Shown here: positions 16,794 to 38,335 of the stretch, one piece after another
Layout: each line of letters begins with the position of its first letter
Numbering within the stretch: the stretch's first letter is position 1
Source of the DNA: an uncultured delta proteobacterium
GTDB lineage: Bacteria > Myxococcota_A > Polyangia > Polyangiales > B10-G4
NCBI GenBank assembly: GCA_963727445.1
Contig: CAVSGI010000020.1
Coordinates: forward strand, 672,001-736,000
DNA length: 64,000 nt
Direction of reading: 5' to 3'
Translations under genes and position numbers: made by a program
Notes under the pieces: model-generated
Seen by the model: only the letters and a program-made list of their open reading frames with translations
Databases searched by the model: none
What the model was told of the DNA's origin: nothing

Positions 16794-18002
<1,209 letters not shown>

Positions 18003-20296: not shown

Positions 20297-21319
20297 ATGG
20301 ACGTGCCCGCTATCGAGCTCATCTACGACGACGACTGCCCGAACGTGGCGGAGGCGCGCGACAACCTCCGGCAGGCGCTCGCATCCCTCGAGATGTCGCC
20401 GCACTGGCAGGAATGGTCGCGCGACGACGACGCGAGCCCTCCACACGTTCGCCGGTATGGCTCGCCGACGATCCTGGTCGAGGAGCGCGACGTGGCTTGG
20501 GGGGACGCGCCGGCCGGTGGCTCTTGCTGTCGTCTCTACGCTCAGTCCGATGGGAGCATGCGGGGCGCGCCCAGTGTGGACACGATCACCGCCGCGCTCG
20601 CGCGCGTCACGGCGACGATGGAATCCAGGCGCTCTTTCCTTGTGGGCGCAGGCGCGAGCACCGCGCTCCTCTTCTCCGGATGCGGGGGCCAGTCCGGCAG
20701 CGCGCCGCCCGCGCAGTCGCCCGCGGGCGGCCGTGGCGAAGGGGAGGTCTCGGTCAACGAAGACCTCATGCGCGAGCACGGCGTGCTGCGCCGCCTCCTT
20801 CTGATCTACGAGGCGTCGCGAGCGCTCTTGGCCATGGACGCGGGGTTTCAGGCGGCGCCCCTCTACCGCGCGGCGGGCCTCGTGCAGCGGTTCATCGAGC
20901 AGTACCACGAGAAGCTCGAAGAGGATCATCTCTTCCCGCGCTTCGAGCGCGCGGGGCGACTCGTCGCGCTGGTCACGACCCTGCGCGAGCAGCATCTCGC
21001 CGGACGCCGCGTCACCGAGGCGATCCTCGAACAGACCGGGCAGGGCGAAGCGTCAGCGGACGCCGAGGGCCTGACCCGGGCGATCGACTCTTTCCTTCGG
21101 ATGTACCGGCCGCACGCCGCGCGCGAGGACACGGTCCTCTTTCCGGCCCTACGAGAGATCGTCAGCGCGTCGGAGCTCGTCGAGCTCGGCGAGCAATTCG
21201 AGGAGATCGAGCATCAGCGCTTCGGCGAGCGCGGCTTCGAGAGCGTCGTGGAAGAGGTCGCCGAGATCGAACGCGACCTCGGGATCCACGACCTCGCCCA
21301 GTTCACGCCGCGACAGTGA
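20297..21319 (+). CDS. fusion of thioredoxin-like Cys domain and Tat-lipoprotein hemerythrin-domain protein
   Basis: 'DCPNV...YGSPTILV...SCCRLY', then internal 'MESRRSFL...LFSGC' at 20618, then 'LMREHG..YHEKLEE..EQH..HAAREDTVLFP'. Confidence 0.8.
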   Translation: MDVPAIELIYDDDCPNVAEARDNLRQALASLEMSPHWQEWSRDDDASPPHVRRYGSPTILVEERDVAWGDAPAGGSCCRLYAQSDGSMRGAPSVDTITAALARVTATMESRRSFLVGAGASTALLFSGCGGQSGSAPPAQSPAGGRGEGEVSVNEDLMREHGVLRRLLLIYEASRALLAMDAGFQAAPLYRAAGLVQRFIEQYHEKLEEDHLFPRFERAGRLVALVTTLREQHLAGRRVTEAILEQTGQGEASADAEGLTRAIDSFLRMYRPHAAREDTVLFPALREIVSASELVELGEQFEEIEHQRFGERGFESVVEEVAEIERDLGIHDLAQFTPRQ

Positions 21320-21400: not shown

Positions 21401-24400
21401 TCAGCCACGAGAACTGATCGCTGCTCCGCCCCAGCGGCTCAAGAGGGCGGGGACGACGATCATGTTCAGGAGCGTCGAGCTCGACAGGCCCGTGACGATG
21501 ACCAGGGCCATGGGCGCCTGGATCTCCGCGCCCGGCTCTCCGAGGGCGAGCGCTAGGGGCAAAAGGCCCAGCGCGGCCGTGACCGCCGTCATGAGGATAG
21601 GAGCGAGGCGCTCGCGGGCCGCGACGACCACCGCCTCTTCGCGCGCGACGCCGCCCCCTTCGAGGTCGCCCGTCCGCGTCGCGAGGAGGATCCCGTTGCG
21701 CGTCGCGATGCCGAACAGTGTGATGAACCCGATGGTGGTCGCGATGGACATCACCCCACCGGCGAGGTAGACGCCCGCGACGCCGCCCGCGAGCGCGAGG
21801 GGCAGGTTGGAAAGGACGATCGCGGTGCGCCGCGCGCTCCTGAGGGTCGCACCCACGATCAGGCCGATCCCCAGGATCACCAACAGGCCGAGCAGGAGCA
21901 GGCGCTCTGTCGCCTCCTCTTCCTGCTCGAACTGGCCGGCGTACTCGACGTGCACGCCCTCGGGCAGGTCCACCTGTGACTCGACGGCCGCTCGTACGTC
22001 TGCTGCGACGCTGCGCAGGTCGCGCCCCACCACGTTTGCCGTCACCACGACCCGCCGGCGCACGTTCTCGCGCATGATGTAGTTGGGCGCGCGATCGGGC
22101 CAGATCTCGGCGATGGCCCCGAGCGGCACCGACGCACCCGAGGGCGTGGGCACGCGAACCTCGCGCAGACGGTCCCGGCTGTCGCGCACAGCGTCGTCGT
22201 AGCGGACGATGATGTCGGTCGACATGCTGTCCTCGAAGACGCGCCCCACGTCGCGCCCCCACAGAGCCAGCCCCACGGCGCTGGCGCCTTCGCCGCGGGA
22301 GAGCTCGTGCTGGGCGGCCGCGGTGGGGTCGATGTCGACGACGAGCTGCGGCGTGTCGATCATCGGCTCGACCTGCACGTCGACGAGCCCTTCGATCCCC
22401 ACGATCGCGTCGTGCACCTGCTGGGCGATCCGCCGCCCCGCGTCGAGGTCCTCGCCGACCACGCGCACCGTCAGGGCCGCGCGCTGTCCGGAGAGCATGT
22501 GATCGATGCGGTGGGAGATGGGCTGGCCGAAAGTGAAGTTGGCGCCGGGAACGACCGAGAGTCGGTCGCGCAGGTCCGACAGGAGCTCTTCTCGGTCGCG
22601 CTCGTCGTCGGGGTCGAGGAGGATGTCCATCTCGCTCGCCTCCGGGCCCTGCACGTGCTCGTTGCGCTCCGCCCGGCCGGTGCGCCGCGTCGTGGAGACG
22701 ACCGCGGGGTCGGCGAGGAGCGCCTCCTCGGCGAGGGTCCCGAGGGCGTCGCTCTCGTCGAGAGACGTGCCCGGCAGAACGACCATCGCCAGGTTGATGC
22801 TCCCCTCGTTGAACTCCGGCAGGAACGATCGACCCGTCCCAGCGAGCGCGGCGACGCCGACGACGACGAAGAAGAGCGCGCCCCCGGCGACCAGGCGCGG
22901 AGAGCGGACCGAGAACTGCAGCGCGGGCTCGTAAGCGCGGTGCAGCCATCGCTGCAGCGGCGGTTCCTCGGACGCGGCCCCCGCCTTCCCCCGCGGCAGA
23001 AGCCAGGATGCGAGCACCGGCGTCACCGTGATGGCCACCAGGAGCGACGCCAGGATGGCGACCAGATAGGAGAGCGCGAGCGGACGGAGAAGGCGCCCCT
23101 CGATCCCGGTGAGGAAGAGCAGCGGCGTGAAGACCAGAAGCAGGATGGCGGTCGCGCTGACGATCGACGAACGGATCTCGCGCGACGCCGACAGCACGGT
23201 GTCGAGGACCGCCGGGCGCTCGCCCTCGGGTAGCCGCGCGCGCTCTCGCAGCCGGCGTGCGATGTTCTCGACATCGATGATCGCGTCGTCCACCAGCTCG
23301 CCGATCGCGATCGCGAGCCCGCCGAGCGTCATCGTGTCGAGGCTCATGCCCATGGCGTCGAGCGCGAGGGTGGCGCTCAACATGGAGAGCGGCAGCGCGA
23401 GGACGCTGATCACAGTCGCGCCGGGGTGCCAGAGGAAGAGCAACAGGACGACCGCCACGAGGAACGCGCCGTCGCGCAGGACGTCGAGGAGGTTGTCGAC
23501 GGCGGTCTCGATGAAGCCCGACTGGCGGAAGAGATCGCGGTCTAGGCGAACGCCGCGGGCGGTGAGCGCTGGCTCGAGCGCGTCGAGGGCCTCGTCGACG
23601 AGCGCCGTGGTCCTCAGAGTGTCGGCCGACGGTTGCCGCACCACGCTGAGCACGACCGCGGGCTTCGCGTCGTAGCTCCCCGTTCCCCGACGCACCGCCG
23701 GACCCACCCGAACGTCGGCGACGTCGCGCACCAGCACCGGAACCCCCCCGCGTGACGACACGCGGATCGCACCGATCTCGTCCACCGTCGACGCGCGCCC
23801 GAGGACGCGCACCACCGACTCCTGCCCGGCTTCGACGACGTAGCCGCCGGGCGCGTTCGCGCTGCCCGCCTCGATCGCGTCGGCGACCTCGGTCCCGGTG
23901 AGATCGAAGCGTGTCAGCCTCTCCGGATCGAGGATGACCTGGTATTGGCGCTCCTCACCGCCGAGGGCCACCACCTGCGAGACGCCCTGCACGGCGAGGA
24001 TCCGCCGGCGCACGTCCCGCTCGGCGATGCGGCGCAGCTCCATCGGGTCGAGCTCGTCGCTGGTGAGCGCGACGAAGGCGATCTCGCCCATCACCGACGA
24101 GGGCGGCGCGAGGACGGGCGCGTCCGCCTCCGGCGGGAGCCTGGTGGCGATCTCCTGAAGGCGCTCCATGACGCGCTGCCGCGCGAGCGGGCCTGGGGTG
24201 TCCCAGTCGAACTCGACCCACACGATCGAGATCCCCGCCGCGGACGCAGAGCGCACGCGCCGGGTGCCGGCGACGCCGTTCACGGCGCTCTCGAGGGGGA
24301 AGGTGACGAGCTGCTCCACTTCGGTCGGCGCGAGGCCCGTCGCTTCGGTCACGATGGTCACGCGCGGCGCACTCAGATCCGGAAAGACGTCCACGCGCAT

Positions 24401-24499
24401 CTGCCCGAGGCGATAGGTACCGAGCACGGTCAGGAGCACGGCCGCCGCCATCACGAAGACGCGGTGTCGGAGCGAGGCGCGCAGGATCCGATCGATCAT
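21401..24499 (-). CDS. czcA: CusA/CzcA heavy-metal RND permease
   Basis: 'VDVFPDL','GELVDDAIIDVENI','FLPEFNEG','RLAPILMTA'; 1032 aa. Confidence 0.93.
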   Translation of the reverse strand: MIDRILRASLRHRVFVMAAAVLLTVLGTYRLGQMRVDVFPDLSAPRVTIVTEATGLAPTEVEQLVTFPLESAVNGVAGTRRVRSASAAGISIVWVEFDWDTPGPLARQRVMERLQEIATRLPPEADAPVLAPPSSVMGEIAFVALTSDELDPMELRRIAERDVRRRILAVQGVSQVVALGGEERQYQVILDPERLTRFDLTGTEVADAIEAGSANAPGGYVVEAGQESVVRVLGRASTVDEIGAIRVSSRGGVPVLVRDVADVRVGPAVRRGTGSYDAKPAVVLSVVRQPSADTLRTTALVDEALDALEPALTARGVRLDRDLFRQSGFIETAVDNLLDVLRDGAFLVAVVLLLFLWHPGATVISVLALPLSMLSATLALDAMGMSLDTMTLGGLAIAIGELVDDAIIDVENIARRLRERARLPEGERPAVLDTVLSASREIRSSIVSATAILLLVFTPLLFLTGIEGRLLRPLALSYLVAILASLLVAITVTPVLASWLLPRGKAGAASEEPPLQRWLHRAYEPALQFSVRSPRLVAGGALFFVVVGVAALAGTGRSFLPEFNEGSINLAMVVLPGTSLDESDALGTLAEEALLADPAVVSTTRRTGRAERNEHVQGPEASEMDILLDPDDERDREELLSDLRDRLSVVPGANFTFGQPISHRIDHMLSGQRAALTVRVVGEDLDAGRRIAQQVHDAIVGIEGLVDVQVEPMIDTPQLVVDIDPTAAAQHELSRGEGASAVGLALWGRDVGRVFEDSMSTDIIVRYDDAVRDSRDRLREVRVPTPSGASVPLGAIAEIWPDRAPNYIMRENVRRRVVVTANVVGRDLRSVAADVRAAVESQVDLPEGVHVEYAGQFEQEEEATERLLLLGLLVILGIGLIVGATLRSARRTAIVLSNLPLALAGGVAGVYLAGGVMSIATTIGFITLFGIATRNGILLATRTGDLEGGGVAREEAVVVAARERLAPILMTAVTAALGLLPLALALGEPGAEIQAPMALVIVTGLSSSTLLNMIVVPALLSRWGGAAISSRG

Positions 24500-24511
24500 C
24501 GGCGACCGTCC

Positions 24512-26092
24512 TCAGTGCACGTGCCCATGACCGACCGCTCCGCTGCTGCCGGCGAGTCGGACCAGATGTGCGCCGCGGGTGACGATGCGCTCGCCCTCTT
24601 CGACCCCCGACGTGACGGCGACGCGGTCCCCTTCGCTCGGGCCCAGGCGCACGACGCGCTCCTCGAAGGACTCTCCCTCCGCCTGTACGTAGACCACGCT
24701 CCGCCCCTCGACGTCGAGCACCGCGGAGCGTGGGACTGTCACCGCTTCGACCGCCTCGCCGACCGGGATGAGCACGCGTAGCGCGGCGCCGACGCGGAGC
24801 GACTCGTCTGGCTCGCCGAGCGCGTAGACGACGCGGACGGTGCGGCTCGTCGGATCCACCGTGCGACTGGCGTGGACCAGGGTGTCGTGCGCTTCGGAGC
24901 CGTCGCCTTCGAGCGCGATCGGGTGCCATCGATCCTCGCCCACCAGTTGAAACGAGGCGTTGGCGTCGCGAACGAAGCGCCCCGCCCAGCTCTCGGGGAC
25001 CTCCGCGCTGACCCACAGCGTGTTCGGGTCGACCACGCGGAAGAGGAGCTCGTTCGCGTCCACCGCCTCTCCCGGCGAGACCTCCACGGCGTCGACGATC
25101 CCCGCGATGGGCGCCGTGATGCGCCACGAGCCCCGGCCGCGACCGCTCTCGGCAGACGCGTACATCGACTGCGCGCGGCGCGCGGCCGACAGGCTCGCCT
25201 CGGCCACCTGAAGCTGGCGCCGCGCTTCGGCGAGACGCCGCTCCGGGATGGCCTGGTCCGCCACCATGCGCTCCGCGCGCTCGACCTCGGTGCGGCCCGC
25301 CTCGACCTGCGCCTGCGCTTCGACCACGGCCAGGTCCGCCCTCGCCGCGTCTTCGGGTGCGCCCGGCGTCGGCGCGATCGTCGCCAACAGCGCGCCGGCT
25401 TGCACGGCCTGGCCGGGAAGGGGGAAGCCGCTGCGCCCGGCCATCACCCGTCCTCCGACCGGCGCGTGGACGTGCGCGACGCCACCGGGAGGGGTCGTGA
25501 GCTCGCCGCTGACCCCGACGCTGGGGCGCACGGTTCCCCGCGCGGCGAAGGCGGTGTCGAAAGACACGCGCCACTGTTGCTCCTTCAGGAACGACACCGC
25601 GCCTCCGCCCCGCTCGTCCGCGGGATTGGCGGCGTCGGCCGCTTCCTGGCTCGGATACACCTCGACCGCGAAGGGGCCGATGGTGCCCTCGCCGCCGTCG
25701 ATGATCGTGAGCGTGCCCTGATAGGTGCCGGGCGCGGTGGCGGTGAACGTCGGCCGATAGATGCCGGGACGGAGCATCGGCGCCTCGGCGGTGAGCTCCG
25801 CGGGTCCCGTCAACGCGAGTCGCACCCGCGCGTCCTCGAGCGCTCGGAAGCCGTCCAGGACCGTGAGGTGTGCGAGGAAGGGCACCTCCTGACCGACGAC
25901 CGCCGGTGGATGCTCGGCGTAGAGCTCGAGCTCGTCGGTCCACTCGGTGATGCCGATCGCGGCGGGGCCGTGGTCGTGGCCGCCGTGCGAGTGGTGATCG
26001 TCCTCGTGATCGTGGCCCTCTCCGTCCCCCGCGTGGCTGTGGCAGCCCGCGGCGAAGACGACGCTCGCGAAACAGAGAACGGCGTACTTCAC
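24512..26092 (-). CDS. RND periplasmic adaptor lipoprotein with His-rich N- and C-termini
   Basis: Lipobox AAGC; 'HDHEDDHHSHGGHDH'; 'ITAPIAG'; ends GHGHVH; GTG start overlaps the TolC stop. Confidence 0.92.
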   Translation of the reverse strand: MKYAVLCFASVVFAAGCHSHAGDGEGHDHEDDHHSHGGHDHGPAAIGITEWTDELELYAEHPPAVVGQEVPFLAHLTVLDGFRALEDARVRLALTGPAELTAEAPMLRPGIYRPTFTATAPGTYQGTLTIIDGGEGTIGPFAVEVYPSQEAADAANPADERGGGAVSFLKEQQWRVSFDTAFAARGTVRPSVGVSGELTTPPGGVAHVHAPVGGRVMAGRSGFPLPGQAVQAGALLATIAPTPGAPEDAARADLAVVEAQAQVEAGRTEVERAERMVADQAIPERRLAEARRQLQVAEASLSAARRAQSMYASAESGRGRGSWRITAPIAGIVDAVEVSPGEAVDANELLFRVVDPNTLWVSAEVPESWAGRFVRDANASFQLVGEDRWHPIALEGDGSEAHDTLVHASRTVDPTSRTVRVVYALGEPDESLRVGAALRVLIPVGEAVEAVTVPRSAVLDVEGRSVVYVQAEGESFEERVVRLGPSEGDRVAVTSGVEEGERIVTRGAHLVRLAGSSGAVGHGHVH

Positions 26093-27339
26093 AAGGCCCC
26101 CACGGCTTGCCGGAGCGCGACGTCCGCCAGACGAACGGCGAGGTCCAGCTTCAGCTTGCGCTCGGCGACCTGGAGCGCGGCGCGGCGCGCGTCGAGGAGC
26201 TCCACCAGGCTGCGCTCGCCGCCGCTGTATCCGGTGCGGGCCGCGCGCACCAGAACCTCGCTGTCCGCGTGGGTCGCGCCGGCAAAACGCTCGCGCTCGG
26301 CGAGGGCGGCCTCGAGTCGCGCGCGCGCCGCGGAGATGTCGGCACGCATCGCGGCGCGGAAGGCCTGGCCGTAGGTTTCGAGAGAGGAGAGCGCGGCTTC
26401 CGATTCGGCCCGCTCGCCCTGGCCGCGGTCGAAGAAGGGCAGGTCGAGCGAGAGGCCGACATCGTAGCCGTGGCCCTCCTGGGCGCCGCCCTGGTGGTTG
26501 TAGCCGCCGAAGATCTCGAACTGCGGGATCCAGGCGGTGCTCGAGGCGTTGCGCGCACGCTGCGCCAGGTCGAGCCGGGTCTCGAGGGAGCGCAACAGGG
26601 GGTGGTTCTGCCGGGCCCGCGCCAGCAGCGCATCGACAGGCGGGGGTGGCGCGACCTCGAAGTCGCCGCGCACCTGCCGCGACCCGTCCGCTTCGCCGAG
26701 CAGCGCGGCGAGCTGTTCCAGGGTGATCGCCAGCTCCGACGAGGCTTGCGCGAGCTGACTTCGTCCGAGCTCCGCCTCGAGCGCGAGGCGCGCGCGCTCG
26801 TACCCCGACGCTTCGCCCGCCGCCTGGCGACTGGCGAGCACCCGAGACACCTCGTCGAGCACGTCCTGCCCCGCGCGAAGGAGCGTCAGCCGGCGTTCGA
26901 GCGCCAGCGCCGAGTAGAAGAGCCCGAGCGCCTGCGCCGCGAGCCCGAGCGTCAGGTCCGTGGCGCTGGCGCTCGCGTCCTCGGCGTCGAGCTCGGCGAG
27001 CAGTCGCTGTGCGGAACGCCGACCGGAGAGATTGAGCGGCACGTGCGCACGAGCGACGTCCTGGCTCTGCGCGTTCGGCGCGAAGGACTCCTGTCGCTCC
27101 CAATCGACGAAGGGGTTCGGGGCCAGGCCCACGCCCTCGACGCGCGCCCGCGCGCGCCGCGCCGCCCCCTCGGCCACGAGGGCGAGGGGGGCGCGCTCTC
27201 GCGCGTGCTCCACGACGCGCGCCTCGGTCCATGGCGTCGGCTGGGCGTGCGCCGTCGCACCGGCGCAGAAGAAGAGGGCCCCAGCGACGAAGAAGATCCG
27301 ATTCGGTATCGGAGTTAATCTGAGAGGGATGTTCATCAC
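26089..27339 (-). CDS. TolC/CzcC outer membrane factor
   Basis: Signal peptide; 'LPFFDRGQG'; 'GYSGGERSLVELLDARR'. Confidence 0.92.
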   Translation of the reverse strand: MMNIPLRLTPIPNRIFFVAGALFFCAGATAHAQPTPWTEARVVEHARERAPLALVAEGAARRARARVEGVGLAPNPFVDWERQESFAPNAQSQDVARAHVPLNLSGRRSAQRLLAELDAEDASASATDLTLGLAAQALGLFYSALALERRLTLLRAGQDVLDEVSRVLASRQAAGEASGYERARLALEAELGRSQLAQASSELAITLEQLAALLGEADGSRQVRGDFEVAPPPPVDALLARARQNHPLLRSLETRLDLAQRARNASSTAWIPQFEIFGGYNHQGGAQEGHGYDVGLSLDLPFFDRGQGERAESEAALSSLETYGQAFRAAMRADISAARARLEAALAERERFAGATHADSEVLVRAARTGYSGGERSLVELLDARRAALQVAERKLKLDLAVRLADVALRQAVGAL

Positions 27340-27357
27340 CGCCGGTCGCGTGAGGCG

Positions 27358-28308
27358 TCAGGAGAAGAAGAGACCGAAGAGGGTCTCCACCGCGTGGTGG
27401 AGGGAGAGCGCGCCGAGGCCGAGCGCGGTCGCGAGGAGCGCCGCCGAAAAGAGCAATCCGCCGATCGAGGGGCCGGGGCGACACGGCGCTGGATCGAGGA
27501 GGCGCTGCACGCGAAGGGCAAAGGGCCCCGAATGGAAACCGACGCCTGCCTCGCGGATGCCGTGGTTCCAGCGCATCCATTCGACGAGGGTCTCGGCGAC
27601 CTCCAGGCGGCAGCCAACGGCCTCGGCGGCTCGATCGTCGGCGCCGAGCTCCTGGGCTTCGCGCAGTCGGTCGAGGAGCGCGGTGCCGAGCAGCGGTAGA
27701 TGGAACGCCGTGAGCAGCTCCGCGCTCCACCGCAGGAGTGGATCGCGATCGGCCGCGTGCGCGCGTTCGTGCTCGAGCACCACGCGCCACCGGGCGCCGC
27801 CGGCGAGGACCGCTTCGCTGATCACGACGGCCGGGCGGGCGAGGCCGACGGTGAAGGCGAGGGGGGCATCGCCGGGCAGGACCCAGAGGTCGCCTTCGCG
27901 GCGCGCAGCGCTCAGCACCCGCCGCAGGGCGAGCGCGCCGCGCAAGGCGCGCGATAGGGCGCGCCCGAGGCGGTGCACCATGTACACGCAGGCGACCGCG
28001 GCGAAGGTGCCGACGACCACGTTCGGCATCGGGGCCCCGTGCACGAAGCAGAGATGAAGGTGCCCCGGGTGATGGATGCAGTGGTCGGAGAGGCCGAGCC
28101 ACTGATGCGGGAACGCGACGCCGGCGACCACGAGGGCTCCGACGAAGGGCGGCGCCGCGAGGGCGGCGAGCATCAGCCGGGACTCTGCGTCCGGCTCGAG
28201 CGTCCCGAGGCGCGCGCGGGCGAAGCGGACGACGGCCGCGACGAGCAGCGACGTCCCGAGGGCGGCGGCCGCGAAGAGCGCGACCAGATGGATGGCGAGG
28301 CCCATCAT
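27358..28308 (-). CDS. M56 (BlaR1-like) membrane metallopeptidase without a penicillin-binding domain
   Basis: 'AFTVGLARPAVVIS','HERAH..RDPL','QELGADDRA'; His/Cys loop 'DHCIHHPGHLHLCFVH'. Confidence 0.9.
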   Translation of the reverse strand: MMGLAIHLVALFAAAALGTSLLVAAVVRFARARLGTLEPDAESRLMLAALAAPPFVGALVVAGVAFPHQWLGLSDHCIHHPGHLHLCFVHGAPMPNVVVGTFAAVACVYMVHRLGRALSRALRGALALRRVLSAARREGDLWVLPGDAPLAFTVGLARPAVVISEAVLAGGARWRVVLEHERAHAADRDPLLRWSAELLTAFHLPLLGTALLDRLREAQELGADDRAAEAVGCRLEVAETLVEWMRWNHGIREAGVGFHSGPFALRVQRLLDPAPCRPGPSIGGLLFSAALLATALGLGALSLHHAVETLFGLFFS

Positions 28309-28700
28309 CGCTTCTTCCGTTTCCGCTCGGCGATCAAGGCGGAGAGCTGATCGAGCGAGCGCTGATCGGCCTCGGCGATGACGTCGACGAACGCGGTCAG
28401 CACGCCGAGATCGGCGAGGGCCTGGGCGCCCCCGACGGCGTCGACCATGCGCCGTGCGTGGAACGCTTCGCGCTCGATCGCAGGACGATAGCGATAGGCG
28501 TGCGACACCTTCACGCGCTTCACCAAGCCCTTGCGGTGCAGCCGCTCGAGGGCCGAGCCGACCGTGTTGACGCTGTTGCTCCGCGCGCGTCCGACCACCG
28601 CGTGGGTCTCGGTGACGTCCGCTTCGCCGACCGACCACAGGTGGTCGAGCACCTCGAGCTCGAGCTCACCGAGCGGCGGCAGAGGGGCGTCGAGCGACAT
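28305..28700 (-). CDS. BlaI/MecI/CopY family repressor
   Basis: 'LGELELEVLDHLW','NTVGSALERLHRKGLVKR..HAYRYRP'. Confidence 0.93.
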   Translation of the reverse strand: MSLDAPLPPLGELELEVLDHLWSVGEADVTETHAVVGRARSNSVNTVGSALERLHRKGLVKRVKVSHAYRYRPAIEREAFHARRMVDAVGGAQALADLGVLTAFVDVIAEADQRSLDQLSALIAERKRKKR

Positions 28701-28800
28701 GGAGACAACGATGCCAATCGAGTCTCCGATGGTCAATCGGATTTAGCGCTGGAAAAGGGCGGCCGTTGCTCGCAGCGGTCGGCTCTGTCAGGGTCGCGCC

Positions 28801-30160: not shown

Positions 30161-30772
30161 TCAGCTCTTCATCCACAAGCGAAGCATGTGGGGCATCTCG
30201 CGGTCGACGCGGATCTGCGCGTAAGCCGTGGGCATCCGGCCGCCGAAGCCGTTGTACCCGATGACGTACGTTCCCACGCGCGCCTTCTCGAGGAAGCTCT
30301 GAACGAAAGCGACGTCTCGTCGATGGCGCTCGTCGCTCAACTCGACGTCATCGCCGAGTCGCTGCTCTGGTAGGAAGCGGTTTTCGCCGAAAGGGTTGTA
30401 GAGGTAATAGGCATCCGCCTCGGGCAGCGCGCACTGTCCCAGCGTTCCCTGAAGGAAGTGGACGCGATCCGCGACGTCGAAGCGCTGGGCGAGGTCGCGC
30501 GCGGCCGCGACGAAGTGTGGTCGATGCTCGATGCCCACGAACGAGCACTGGCTGGCGAGCGCGGTGGCGACGCAGAACTTCCCCGCCCCGGAGCCGATGT
30601 CGACCACCGTCCTGACGCCGAGCTCGTCGAGCCACCCGGCGACGCGCAGCGCGACCACGAGCGGCGTCCAGTGCTGGTTGGAGACGAGCCTCGACGGGTC
30701 GGACAGGAAGCGATCGAAATCGCGATCGAGGGGACATTTCCCCAGGCGAAGCATCTGGGCGATTTCGTCCAC
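30161..30772 (-). CDS. SAM-dependent methyltransferase
   Basis: 'HWTP','VVDIGSGAGKF','GIEHR','YLYNPF'. Confidence 0.88.
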   Translation of the reverse strand: MDEIAQMLRLGKCPLDRDFDRFLSDPSRLVSNQHWTPLVVALRVAGWLDELGVRTVVDIGSGAGKFCVATALASQCSFVGIEHRPHFVAAARDLAQRFDVADRVHFLQGTLGQCALPEADAYYLYNPFGENRFLPEQRLGDDVELSDERHRRDVAFVQSFLEKARVGTYVIGYNGFGGRMPTAYAQIRVDREMPHMLRLWMKS

Positions 30773-30792: not shown

Positions 30793-31902
30793 ATGAGTGA
30801 AGCGGCAACACCAGGCCTGATGACCCGTCTGTCCTTCCTGGACCGTTATCTGACCGTCTGGATCTTCGCCGCCATGGCGGCCGGCGTCGGTCTCGGGTTC
30901 GCGGCCCCCGGCGTCGTGGATGCCCTCGACGCCATGAGCGTCGGCACGACGAGCATCCCCATCGCCATCGGCCTCATCCTGATGATGTACCCGCCGCTGG
31001 CCAAGGTTCGCTACGAGGAGCTCGGGCGGGTCTTTCGCAACAAGCGGGTGCTCGCGCTCTCGCTCGTCCAGAACTGGCTGATCGGGCCCGTGCTGATGTT
31101 CGGTCTCGCCGTCCTCTTCTTGCGAGACGAGCCCGAGTACATGCTGGGGCTCATCCTCATCGGTCTCGCCCGCTGCATCGCCATGGTCATCGTGTGGAAC
31201 GACCTGGCCAGAGGCGACCGCGAGTACTGCGCGGGCCTGGTGGCGATGAACTCCATCTTCCAGGTGCTCTTCTTCTCGGTCTACGCGTACTTCTTCGCCA
31301 CGCTCCTGCCGAGCTGGCTCGGCCTCGAAGGCGCGGTGGTGAACATCACCATCGGCGAGATCGCCAAGACCGTAGCCATCTATCTCGGGATCCCCTTCGC
31401 GGCCGGCTTCCTCACCCGCCGGCTGCTCGTGCGTGCGAAGGGTCGCGAGTGGTACGAGACGAAGTTCGCGTCGCGCATCGGCCCGATCACCCTGGTCTCG
31501 CTGCTCTTCACCATCGTCGTCATGTTCTCGCTCAAGGGCGAGGCCATCGTCCAGCTGCCCCTCGACGTGCTGCGCATCGCCGTGCCGCTGCTCATCTACT
31601 TCGTCGTGATGTTCCTGATCACGTTCTTCATGAGCAAGCGCGTCGGCGCGAGCTACGAAGAGGCGGCGACGCTCTCGTTCACGGCAGCCTCGAACAACTT
31701 CGAGCTCGCCATCGCCGTCGCCATCGCGAGCTTCGGCATCCACAGCGGTGCCGCGTTCGCCGCGGTCATCGGCCCCCTGGTCGAAGTCCCCGCCCTCATC
31801 GGGCTCGTTCACGTGGCTCTGTGGCTCGGCAGGAAGTATTTCCCCGAGGCCAAGCTCGATGCTGGCGAGGCGTCCGGCGGGCCCCACCACGAAGCCGCAT
31901 GA
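30793..31902 (+). CDS. acr3: ACR3 arsenite efflux transporter
   Basis: 'LSFLDRYL','MMYPPLAKV','[13 protein letters not shown]','[12 protein letters not shown]','GPLVEVP'. Confidence 0.97.
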
Positions 31903-33046
31903 AGACCCTGGACACAGCGCTGGTCGTGGTCCGCGAGCAGCTCGCGGAGGCGAAGGCGGCTCGAAAGCGCCACGCCTGCGGCTGTCTTCACTCCACCGTC
32001 GGTGCCCTCGCCGCGACCTCCATCGCAGCCGATATCGGCGCGGCGCTCGAGGCCGCGCGGCAGGTGTTCGCGCCCAAGAGGTACGACTGCCTCGGTTGCG
32101 CGTGTGCTTCCCCGCGATCGCCGCGAACGCGTTCGCAGAGGCGCGTCCGAGCGAGGCGGGCGATCCCGATCTCTGCCCGACCGAGGGCCCCGAGGTGCGC
32201 GAAGGATGGCCGGCGCTCGCCGGGGACTACCGCGTGGTGCGCTACCAGGCCCCTGTCGCGGTCTGCGCGCTCAACAGCGGGGCCGTGGCGACCGCGCTGG
32301 CGGAGCGCGCGCCCGAGGGGCTGTCGATCGTCGGAACGATGCACACGGAGAACCTCGGCATCGAGCGCGTGATCAGGAACGTGCTCGACGATCCCCACAT
32401 CCGTTTCCTCGTCGTCTGCGGCGAAGACACGCAGAAGGCCGTCGGGCATCTCCCCGGTCAGTCCATTTCGCGCTCGGCGCGAACGGGATCGACGAAGGCA
32501 TGCGGATCGTCGGTGCGCAGGGGAAGCGGCCCGTGCTCAAGAACGTCGCGCGCGAGGACGTCGAGGCGTTCCGCGCGCGCGTGACGCTGGTCGACGCCAT
32601 CGGCGTCACGGAGCTCGAGCGCCTCCTGGAGATCGTCGGTGACTGTGCGGCGCGCGATCCCGGACCCGCCCCGGCGCACGCGACCTCTTCCAGCGTCGCG
32701 CACGTCGAGACGCGCGCGCCCTCGCGCCTCGTGCGTGACCCGGCGGGCTTCCTGGTCGTGTACCCCGATACGCGGCGGGAGCGACTCGTCGTCGAGCACT
32801 ACACGAACGCCGGCGTCCTCGACGTGGTGCTCGCGGGGCGTGCGCCTGCCGATCTCTACGCCGAGATTCATCGCTCGCGGGCTCTTGTCGCGCCTCGACC
32901 ACGCGGCATATCTGGGACGCGAGCTCGCCCGCGCGGAGAGCTCGCTCGAAACCGGTGAGCCCTTCGTCCAGGACCGCGCGGCGGGCGAAGAGGACCCGTC
33001 GCACGCCGCGGATGAAGGTGCGCCCCCGTGCGGGTGTGGCACCTAG
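31899..33046 (+). CDS. Cys-rich N-domain + MtrA-like corrinoid-binding domain + DUF4346; three frameshifts (about 32100, 32467, 32867)
   Basis: Stitched reading: HACGC..YDCLGC/VCFP..LCP; '[52 protein letters not shown]'; 'DPAGF..VEHY../[17 protein letters not shown]'; ends PCGCGT; ATGA overlap with acr3. Confidence 0.8.
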
Positions 33047-37853: not shown

Positions 37854-37929
37854 TGGCTCCGGATGCTGGACTCGAACCAGCGACAAATCGGTTAACAGCC
37901 GATCGCTCTACCAACTGAGCTAATCCGGA
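37854..37929 (-). tRNA. tRNA-Asn(GTT)
   Basis: 76 nt TCCGGATTAGCTCAGTTGGTAGAGCGATCGGCT-GTT-AACCGATTTGTCGCTGGTTCGAGTCCAGCATCCGGAGCCA; encoded CCA. Confidence 0.98.
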
Positions 37930-38065
37930 AAATGGACTGCGGAAGTTAGCCTTGGATGGCGGGATGTCAAGGATGGGACAGGGGGGCGAAACCAGCGGGA
38001 ATTTCGGGGTGCTTGGCGCGCGCGAGGCGCGGCGCGCTGGCCCGGCGACGGGGGGGCGGTCGCGA

Positions 38066-38335
38066 CTCGGAGGGTTGGGGGCGACGATGGGGGTTGTGAC
38101 CGCATGGCGGTCACAAGTCGGAGGGTTGGGGGCGACGATGGGAGTTGTGACCGCATGGCGGTCACAAGTCGGAGGGTTGGGGGCGACGATGGGAGTTGTG
38201 ACCGCATGGCGGTCACAAGTCGGGGGTTGGGGGCGACGATGGGGGTTGTGACCGCATGGCGGTCGTAAGTCGGGGGGTTGGGGGCGACGCTGGGAGTTGT
38301 GACCGCATGGGGGTCAATGGGAGATGTGACCGCCT
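38066..38335. repeat. tandem array, about 5 x 51 bp, each unit with a hairpin TTGTGACCGC-ATG-GCGGTCACAA plus a G-rich constant linker
   Basis: Palindrome starts at 38094, 38145, 38196, 38246, 38297; linker GTCGGAGGGTTGGGGGCGACGATGGGAG nearly invariant; decays at both ends. Confidence 0.95.

Follow-up and report, generated by a model that had tools for sequence, protein, structure and literature searches.

A cysteine-rich, MtrA-type putative cobalamin protein encoded behind an arsenite pump gene, and its family in bacterial metal-resistance operons

The acr3-linked gene and its domains

In the stretch of DNA analysed here (the window; 64,000 nucleotides of contig CAVSGI010000020.1, from an uncultured member of the Polyangiales), the gene for an arsenite efflux transporter, acr3, overlaps a gene for a cysteine-rich protein with MtrA-type and DUF4346 domains. 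The acr3 gene (30793..31902, + strand) encodes a full-length transporter of 369 amino acids (aa) that matches Pfam SBF and TIGR00832 (462.4 bits against a cut-off of 282.8, over residues 13–342); a single tblastn match makes it the only acr3 found in the source genome (9.47 Mb, 27 contigs, 85.6% complete). Its stop codon and the start codon of the next gene share an ATGA (31899..31902, +), and a contig from another sequencing run, X1, covers this junction without a gap (31810–32059, 6 differing letters in 250). The second gene, which we call Cys6-MtrA-DUF4346 (31899..33046, +; assigned by Pfam and homologs), is read in four pieces, its intact relatives being about 380 aa long. These pieces are 52–70% identical to the intact protein of Anaeromyxobacter oryzae and about 64% identical to the nearest homologs.

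Three family domains follow one another in order across the three frame breaks. An N-terminal helical six-cysteine domain (31899..32190, +), delimited by alignments and by the model of an intact homolog, contains R-H-A-C-G-C at 31968–31985, C-L-G-C at 32088–32099 and further Cys at 32105 and 32174. Five of its six core Cys read as Cys and the first as Arg (codon 31968–31970), which may be a base error. Next, a MtrA-type cobalamin-binding domain (32190..32680, +; Pfam MtrA, profile and model), with the predicted cobalt ligand His at 32447–32449, scored over the Pfam cut-off twice, on piece 2 (E = 1.7e-21) and on piece 3 (E = 1.4e-11); in the alignment it retains all cobalamin contact residues of MtrA. 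The PterinBD-DUF4346 domain (32735..32980, +; Pfam PF14251 and invariant columns) carries the DxxG, EH and DHAAYLGRE motifs and was matched on piece 4 (E = 4.2e-10) and, under the cut-off, on piece 3 (E = 0.0015). The sequence ends in a Cys-Gly-Cys within a flexible tail (33029..33037, +).

A first-pass annotation, made from the letters alone, had described acr3 with an ATGA-overlapping, three-times frameshifted gene; the overlap was found at 31899–31902 and the frame changes near 32100, 32470 and 32862–32867. All the motifs it quoted are present, and Pfam bore out both the MtrA and the DUF4346 domain on the gene pieces. Its ‘HACGC’ proved to be the family motif KCxxCGC with the first Cys read as Arg. 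As for its statement that no other mtr genes are present, Pfam matched MtrA and DUF4346 each at one place only in the source genome, and a search for MtrH in 5 genomes (the source genome and four cultured carriers) found it in none; the other Mtr subunits were not searched for, in a genome of the completeness given above. Pfam and NCBIfam searches gave no match of the protein to the ArsM or ArsI families, and none of Cys6-MtrA-DUF4346 proteins to HgcA or HgcB. Among methyltransferase families, only MtrA-derived models matched the pieces or the intact homolog P0001.

The protein family and its operons

A scan of genome contigs identified 187 relatives, of which the best 80 were kept, in Acidobacteriota, Pseudomonadota, Myxococcota, Chloroflexota and others. 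Complete proteins with the Cys motif were encoded at 69 of these 80 loci; of the others, 8 were incomplete and 3 had no in-frame motif. A protein search gave 2,727 matches among 8,000 candidates, including plain MtrA-domain proteins. The spread is patchy: an MtrA match was obtained in 1 of 60 related genomes, the gene in 2 of 400 other genomes of a phylum sample, and a match in 6 of 72,556 plasmid records, one of them over most of the length. Cultured carriers include A. oryzae, Dechloromonas hortensis and Methylomonas methanica. Dechloromonas sp. ARDL1 has two identical operon copies in distant places (L054 and L058), a sign of recent movement.

The family core consists of six Cys (CxxCxC and CxGCxxC), invariant in 41 of 41 homologs at 33–56% identity. 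The same distant homologs show little or no variation in the T-E-N-x-G motif, at the cobalt His or in the DUF4346 motifs; the ‘LCP’ Cys and the tail Cys vary. The first Cys of KCxxCGC was present in 69 of 69 and in 103 of 103 homologs, at least two tail Cys in 102 of 134 complete homologs, and nine or more Cys in many members. Cobalamin contacts of MtrA are named in the part of PMC4915002 available to us; the corresponding His, Glu, Thr, Asn, Gly and Asn are kept in 102–103 of 103 homologs, and with Asp and Tyr included the range is 93–103 of 103 per site. The family profile matched the MtrA structure 5LAA with E = 1.5e-45. A model of the A. oryzae protein (predicted local distance difference test (pLDDT) 85.3, predicted template modelling score 0.69; tail pLDDT <50) superposed on cobalamin-bound MtrA (5laa_B) with Z 23.4 and a root-mean-square deviation of 1.8 over 153 residues. 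By these sequence and model comparisons, the family has a real MtrA-type cobalamin domain in which the predicted binding site is kept.

The N-terminal domain of an intact homolog was modelled as a helical bundle (pLDDT 91.5). It gave no Foldseek match at E 0.001, and its best hits, at Z 5.6, were unrelated helical proteins, which is not proof of a new fold. At two of 162 loci (L172 and L181; locus set described below), an in-frame TGA stands at the first Cys of CxGCxxC; to judge by the sequences, this likely reflects a selenocysteine and would fit a reactive thiol at this core position. The family is already catalogued under the MtrA name: NCBIfam NF002128 (PRK00964.1-6) spans the whole protein, with residues 9–382 on model positions 9–388 of 390, and the intact homolog scored 503.8, under the cut-off of 568. 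Against TIGR01111, the MtrA of the Mtr complex, it scored 140 bits for a cut-off of 249, and its model has no C-terminal helix. MtrA–DUF4346 pairs without the six-Cys domain were also seen, on small Planococcus plasmids (NZ_MN657150, NZ_CP013660 and NZ_MN657143) and in fusion proteins (P0233, P0227 and P0245) whose other part is a thymidylate synthase, an ICMT/PEMT-type membrane methyltransferase or a PCP_red domain.

Gene neighbourhoods were analysed at 162 loci: the best 80 of 187 genome relatives, the best 80 of 557 metagenome relatives, and 2 from the phylum-sample scan. Of these loci, 63 were shorter than 5 kb, and neighbouring genes were called by comparison with annotated reference proteins. 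Thioredoxin-like proteins and/or CcdA were encoded near 73 loci, and an OB-fold protein and/or a membrane protein with a GCCGSP motif near 30. Any mer gene was found near 23 loci, and any mer, metal-efflux (cation-efflux) or MerR-family gene near 53. An ars gene was near 13, a lower bound because the reference set did not contain ArsB, ArsD, ArsH and ArsI; acr3 was near 2 and abutted the family gene at neither. As a control, 20 stretches of 20 kb were taken from a same-genus genome; none of the marker genes matched there. An ArsR-family motif lay within 1.6 kb upstream at 94 of 162 loci and was CadC-like at 63, with too little upstream DNA at 36. One such repressor was closest, among solved structures, to Lmo1102 and Staphylococcus aureus CadC; in the available part of a preprint (bioRxiv 10.64898/2026.09.30.755606), their Cys site binds Cd, Pb and Bi.

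The usual module is a conserved operon of an ArsR/SmtB repressor, mostly of CadC type, the family gene, a periplasmic Cys protein and a membrane Cys protein. In one pair of partners, a membrane-anchored thioredoxin-like protein is combined with CcdA, which keeps both canonical Cys. A second operon type (L122:7251–8206, L158:5109–5977) has a periplasmic CcmE-like OB-fold protein with a Cys pair and the GCCGSP membrane protein; the latter matched no Pfam family, only unnamed clusters. Both kinds of partner occur fused to the family protein (P0124, P0129; P0128, P0130, P0132, P0150; P0126, P0135, P0162, P0164, P0171), and one homolog, P0176, carries a fused ArsR domain. At three loci (L050:3880–4601, L065:864–1583, L078:5057–5777), a small multidrug resistance (SMR) transporter gene pair lies between repressor and family gene, where MerC sits elsewhere; this pair could export a cationic product. 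A V4R-domain (MsvR-like) gene takes the same place at 10 loci (L008:5044–5577 and related), together with a second type of repressor.

Same-strand neighbours within 600 bases included a mer-type transporter at 14 loci and an ars gene at 6. Merging the loci at 75% identity left 5 mer-type and 5 ars-type among 82 groups, with cation-efflux genes near 25; at 65% identity, 2 and 4 of 33 groups remained. A tree was built from 147 rows after 16 that were short or broken, including the ars-type L139, had been removed; in it, 13 of the 14 MerC-type cases fell into one marine proteobacterial clade, and MerC-type neighbours occupied about two places. The ars-type cases and the window copy fell into about five separate places. 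They include a full ars operon (arsR-acr3-arsC-gene-arsR-arsP, L135) and a locus with arsC 16 bases upstream of the family gene (L127), as well as two weak labels, an LMWP domain fused to HemC (L151) and a sub-cut-off ArsM-like protein (L165).

The window copy grouped, at support 89, with two copies that keep thioredoxin/CcdA partners, and its three nearest tree neighbours had no same-strand ars gene within 600 bases. The usual operon partners are absent at the window locus, and no partner reference matched anywhere in the 85.6% complete genome. At the acr3 loci retrieved from four related genomes, no family gene followed. The coupling to Acr3 is a local recruitment, one of several to arsenic operons, and does not define the family. 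Of the first-pass proposal of a corrinoid arsenic system working with Acr3, the cobalamin domain, the Cys-rich, metal-resistance-linked family and the repeated recruitment to ars operons stand; a conserved Acr3 partnership and arsenic as the main setting are not supported. The enrichment of homologs in ars clusters, which it had named as a check, gave a mixed picture, being present and recurrent but in a minority of loci (13 of 162).

Finally, 50 carrier genomes, picked from the 80 genome loci for length and distinct records, were tallied for genes of metal and cobalamin metabolism. Their groups were assigned from record titles, related carriers are not independent, and the merA, merB, arsM and MetH tallies and the Acidobacteriota comparison include the unpublished genome G444. 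merA (over the cut-off) was found in 17, merB in 11, arsM in 29 and the MetH activation domain in 47. Among 16 gammaproteobacterial carriers, merA occurred in 10 and arsM in 9, whereas each was found in 27 of 150 other genomes of the class (a sample that includes the unpublished genomes G646 and G748); both were about three times as frequent among the carriers. In Acidobacteriota, with a control from one order only (including the unpublished genomes G497, G508, G510, G514, G518 and G524), merA occurred in 5 of 18 carriers against 6 of 120, and arsM in 17 of 18 against 91 of 120. Here merA was raised, and arsM is common anyway. Such co-occurrence favours neither arsenic nor mercury. In the source genome, arsC-like and ArsM-like genes lie on contigs other than this one, and nothing matched merA, merB or merC with the reference set used. 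The genome also has metH, and cobalamin is therefore in use both here and in the carriers with a MetH activation domain.

Candidate functions and the condition of the window copy

Gene context and motif conservation make a general cobalamin- and thiol-based enzyme the best reading, one that we hold tentatively and rate at somewhat less than an even chance. Such an enzyme would methylate or reduce soft metal(loid)s, would not be specific for one element, and would have been recruited to several resistance operons, here to arsenite efflux. We suggest a detoxification module for soft metal(loid)s in which the protein forms the cobalamin-dependent end, on the cytoplasmic side. The membrane partners would bind the thiophilic ion or keep thiols reduced, and the Cys tail and the six-Cys site could then hold the ion beside the cobalamin. 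Methyl-cobalamin or cob(I)alamin would methylate or reduce the ion to a volatile or exportable form, and DUF4346 may reload the cobalt from a pterin- or folate-type carrier. Because this chemistry would work on several elements, the gene could be recruited to Cd/Pb-type, mercury and arsenic operons; the methylation of several metal(loid)s by cobalamin as a side reaction would likewise explain why one enzyme could serve several regulons. In the window, where the usual partners are missing and the gene is attached to acr3, the enzyme would probably act on As(III) or Sb(III).

Several points weigh against this reading. No methyl donor was found, with no MtrH found in the five genomes searched for it, and the pterin binding of DUF4346 rests on its Pfam name. 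CadC-type repressors answer to Cd, Pb and Zn, metals that are not known to be converted by enzymes. CcdA may supply only reducing power and no metal, and the ligand of the six-Cys domain, a domain without a fold match, could be the substrate, Zn or an Fe–S cluster. The wealth of merA and arsM in the carriers may only reflect metal-rich habitats. In the window itself, the gene has three breaks in 1.15 kb for a genome mean of 0.12 per kb (0.14 expected), and departs at three columns invariant in 103 homologs (the first Cys, read as Arg; Pro; Asn).

Among the alternatives, protection or repair of cofactors under metal stress survives best, and we regard it as unlikely. Here the protein would shield or re-reduce cobalamin, or rescue pterin or folate, when soft metals attack thiols and cobalt–carbon bonds, and the metal itself would not be converted. 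This would explain the Cd/Pb-type repressor control and the reducing pair of CcdA and thioredoxin-like protein, as well as MtrH not being found and the reuse of MtrA–DUF4346 with other partners such as thymidylate synthase (P0233); nearly all carriers, moreover, use the B12-dependent MetH. It leaves unexplained, however, the MerC-type importers between repressor and gene at many loci and the variable Cys tail, which resembles the metal-handing tails of MerA and HgcB, and the gene is rare and patchy (2 of 400 phylum-sample genomes) although MetH is common.

A dedicated arsenic enzyme, which would methylate As(III), or demethylate the methylarsenical MAs(III) to As(III) for export by Acr3, appears rather improbable. 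It is supported by the ATGA coupling in the window, spanned by the contig of another run; by the full ars operon of L135 and the closely placed arsC of L127; by the wider scatter of arsenic-adjacent copies in the tree (about five places, against about two for MerC-type copies); by the ArsR-domain fusion (P0176); and by the frequency of arsM in Gammaproteobacteria, with 9 of 16 carriers against 27 of 150 other genomes. Yet acr3 is near only 2 of 162 loci, abutting at none, and any ars gene near only 13. The three nearest tree neighbours of the window copy have no ars gene on the same strand within 600 bases, two of them keeping thioredoxin/CcdA; the gene does not follow acr3 at the loci retrieved from four related genomes, and an MtrA match occurs in 1 of 60 relatives. 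The dominant repressor is CadC-like, and the source genome already has an ArsM-like gene elsewhere.

A mercury-specific enzyme, fed by MerC-type importers and using the MtrA fold either to methylate in the manner of HgcAB or to demethylate without MerB, is less probable again. A MerC/MerF-type gene lies directly upstream at 14 of 162 loci, with merA, merB, merT and merP near others, and the Cys tail is as in HgcB and MerA. The merA frequencies point the same way: 17 of 50 carriers overall, 10 of 16 against 27 of 150 in Gammaproteobacteria and 5 of 18 against 6 of 120 in Acidobacteriota. But 13 of the 14 MerC-type cases belong to the one marine proteobacterial clade, 33 of 50 carriers show no merA, and the source genome gave no merA, merB or merC match with the reference set used. 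The cobalt ligand, too, is His and not the Cys that HgcA needs for full activity, according to the part of PMC7305189 available. Last, a passive, metallothionein-like sink, with Cys clusters that do no more than sequester ions and an MtrA domain that serves as scaffold, would fit the nine or more Cys of many members and the variable tail, but it is very improbable, as the cobalamin contacts and DUF4346 motifs, needless for a sink, are strictly kept down to 33% identity.

Whether the window copy is functional is a separate question from the function of the family. Comparison with a DNA alignment of 11 homologs and with X1 contigs placed three frame breaks on the + strand: one base short against the homologs at 32095..32105 and again at 32460..32475, and one base extra at 32855..32870. 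Three short-read X1 contigs of about 250 bases, at a depth of 2.4–2.9, cover the three breaks, each with one differing letter and one gap. The gaps at 32100 (one base more) and 32867 (one fewer) go in the direction that the homologs need; the contig over 32311–32560 places 251 letters on 250 positions with one gap somewhere in this interval. The X1 organism may be another strain. Frame switches also occur elsewhere in the source assembly: comparison with the same-genus genome revealed them in 13 of 96 orthologs (0.12 per kb), and the metH of this contig (G000:C20:571936–575471) is read in 9 pieces with 8 frame changes, all in one direction. The broken metH and the broken orthologs indicate that errors are common and clustered in this assembly. 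Given the one-base gaps of the X1 contigs at the breaks and the frameshift-rich assembly, the three breaks are probably assembly errors.

The opposite case, a non-functional, decaying passenger behind acr3 in a metal-resistance island that has lost its repressor and partners, is possible though it does not seem likely. It draws on the three substitutions at otherwise invariant columns, one of them a core Cys (among the 103 homologs, 92 show no departure at these columns, 8 show one, 3 show two and 0 show three), and on the three breaks against a mean expectation of 0.14. The source genome also gave no match to a repressor, thioredoxin-like, CcdA, OB-fold or GCCGSP partner, and the acr3–gene stretch has no match in the same-genus genome. 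On the other side stand the near-identical X1 contigs, gapped at each break in the direction that homologs need (at the low depth given above), the clustering of errors seen in metH and the 13 of 96 orthologs, and the retention of all cobalamin contacts.

Other genes of the window give further context. Divergently from acr3, a gene for an S-adenosylmethionine-dependent methyltransferase (30161..30772, – strand; Pfam Methyltransf_31, E = 7.6e-7) starts 20 bases before the acr3 start, so that no repressor gene precedes acr3. It is not ArsM, no ArsM family being among its NCBIfam matches, and it was not found beside any homolog of the Cys6-MtrA-DUF4346 gene. A promoter scan gave one weak minus-strand site and none for acr3, and neither arsR nor arsC was found beside acr3 in the source genome. 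A heavy-metal efflux cluster (21401..28736, –; TIGR00914 and Pfam) lies 2–9 kb from acr3 and comprises a CusA/CzcA-type pump of the resistance–nodulation–division class (TIGR00914, 726 bits for a cut-off of 701), a membrane-fusion protein, an outer-membrane channel, an M48/M56-like membrane protein and a BlaI-type repressor; it is partly common to the same-genus genome. Abutting this cluster, and following a cytochrome c gene, a gene at 20297–21319 (+) joins a short N-terminal part with a CPN motif and a CC pair to a hemerythrin domain. An ArsP_1-family permease gene (16794–18002, +; E = 1.5e-57) lies 13 kb from acr3 without ars neighbours. On the other side, a tRNA-Asn gene (37854–37929, –) is followed by a tandem repeat of about 60 bases at about 37950–38250 in the list of open reading frames; the two may mark an island edge.

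Relation to known systems and significance

The closest known proteins are MtrA and the cytoplasmic MtrA homologues of methanogens (PF04208; 5LAA, 5L8X, 8Q3V and 9QTQ), with the same fold, cobalt His and cobalamin contacts. Compared with methanogen MtrA, the family protein has no membrane anchor and an additional six-Cys domain and DUF4346, MtrH was not found with it, and its genes lie in bacterial metal-resistance operons. The available part of PMC4915002 notes that bacterial MtrA homologues keep the His, and gives them no function there. NF002128, the whole-length NCBIfam model, is named ‘tetrahydromethanopterin S-methyltransferase subunit A’ after one domain and carries no metal-handling function. 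No description of the Cys6-MtrA-DUF4346 family was found in the literature searched, most subscription papers being outside that search.

HgcAB is similar in that a corrinoid domain is joined by a Cys-rich partner, and in its flexible C-terminal pair of Cys, which has been proposed to pass on the metal (PMC7305189). According to the same source, HgcA has a corrinoid domain of CFeSP type, a Cys ligand on the cap helix and five membrane helices, and HgcB two CxxCxxCxxxCP motifs, whereas in the present family the fold is that of MtrA, the predicted ligand is His, the Cys follow a CxxCxC/CxGCxxC pattern and there is no membrane part. The first-pass statement that known arsenic methylation is not corrinoid-based was too strong, as MtaA and methylcobalamin methylate arsenic and other metal(loid)s in methanogens (PMC6205960 and PMC13262295, in the parts available). 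This reaction runs on the side, with coenzyme M and without regulation, whereas the family gene has its own operon and a metal-sensing repressor.

The operon also resembles the mer relay (MerP, MerT/MerC and MerA) in its layout, in which a Cys protein of the periplasm and a membrane protein with a Cys pair are joined by a cytoplasmic enzyme whose tail carries Cys. At 14 family loci a MerC-type gene is inserted, and ArsR-type control of some mer operons is in print. Unlike the flavin disulfide reductase MerA, the end enzyme would be a cobalamin protein; the membrane partner is CcdA or belongs to an unnamed family, and the repressor is CadC-like. Likeness to ars operons of the ArsM, ArsI and Acr3 type lies in the Acr3 pump here and in the several homologs within ars operons; in contrast, the family protein has no ArsM or ArsI match, and arsR and arsC are lacking beside this acr3.

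A wider reading, possible and on present evidence doubtful, is that the family would represent a third biological route for the transfer of alkyl groups to or from metal(loid)s, a regulated one that depends neither on ArsM/ArsI nor on HgcAB/MerB. In aerobic and microaerophilic bacteria, a single cobalamin enzyme, with a selenocysteine active-site variant, would then methylate, demethylate or reduce arsenic, mercury and elements related to them, and the window would show it newly wired to arsenite efflux. The window alone is of lower value, its acr3 link being local and its copy possibly damaged. Genes for the methylation and demethylation of arsenic and mercury serve as markers in soils, rice paddies and waters. 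To these, a cobalamin enzyme of another fold that is controlled by a metal-sensing repressor and occurs in cultured bacteria would add a route so far overlooked. It would also give a function to the bacterial MtrA homologues and to DUF4346, which databases at present mislabel as a subunit of methanogenesis.

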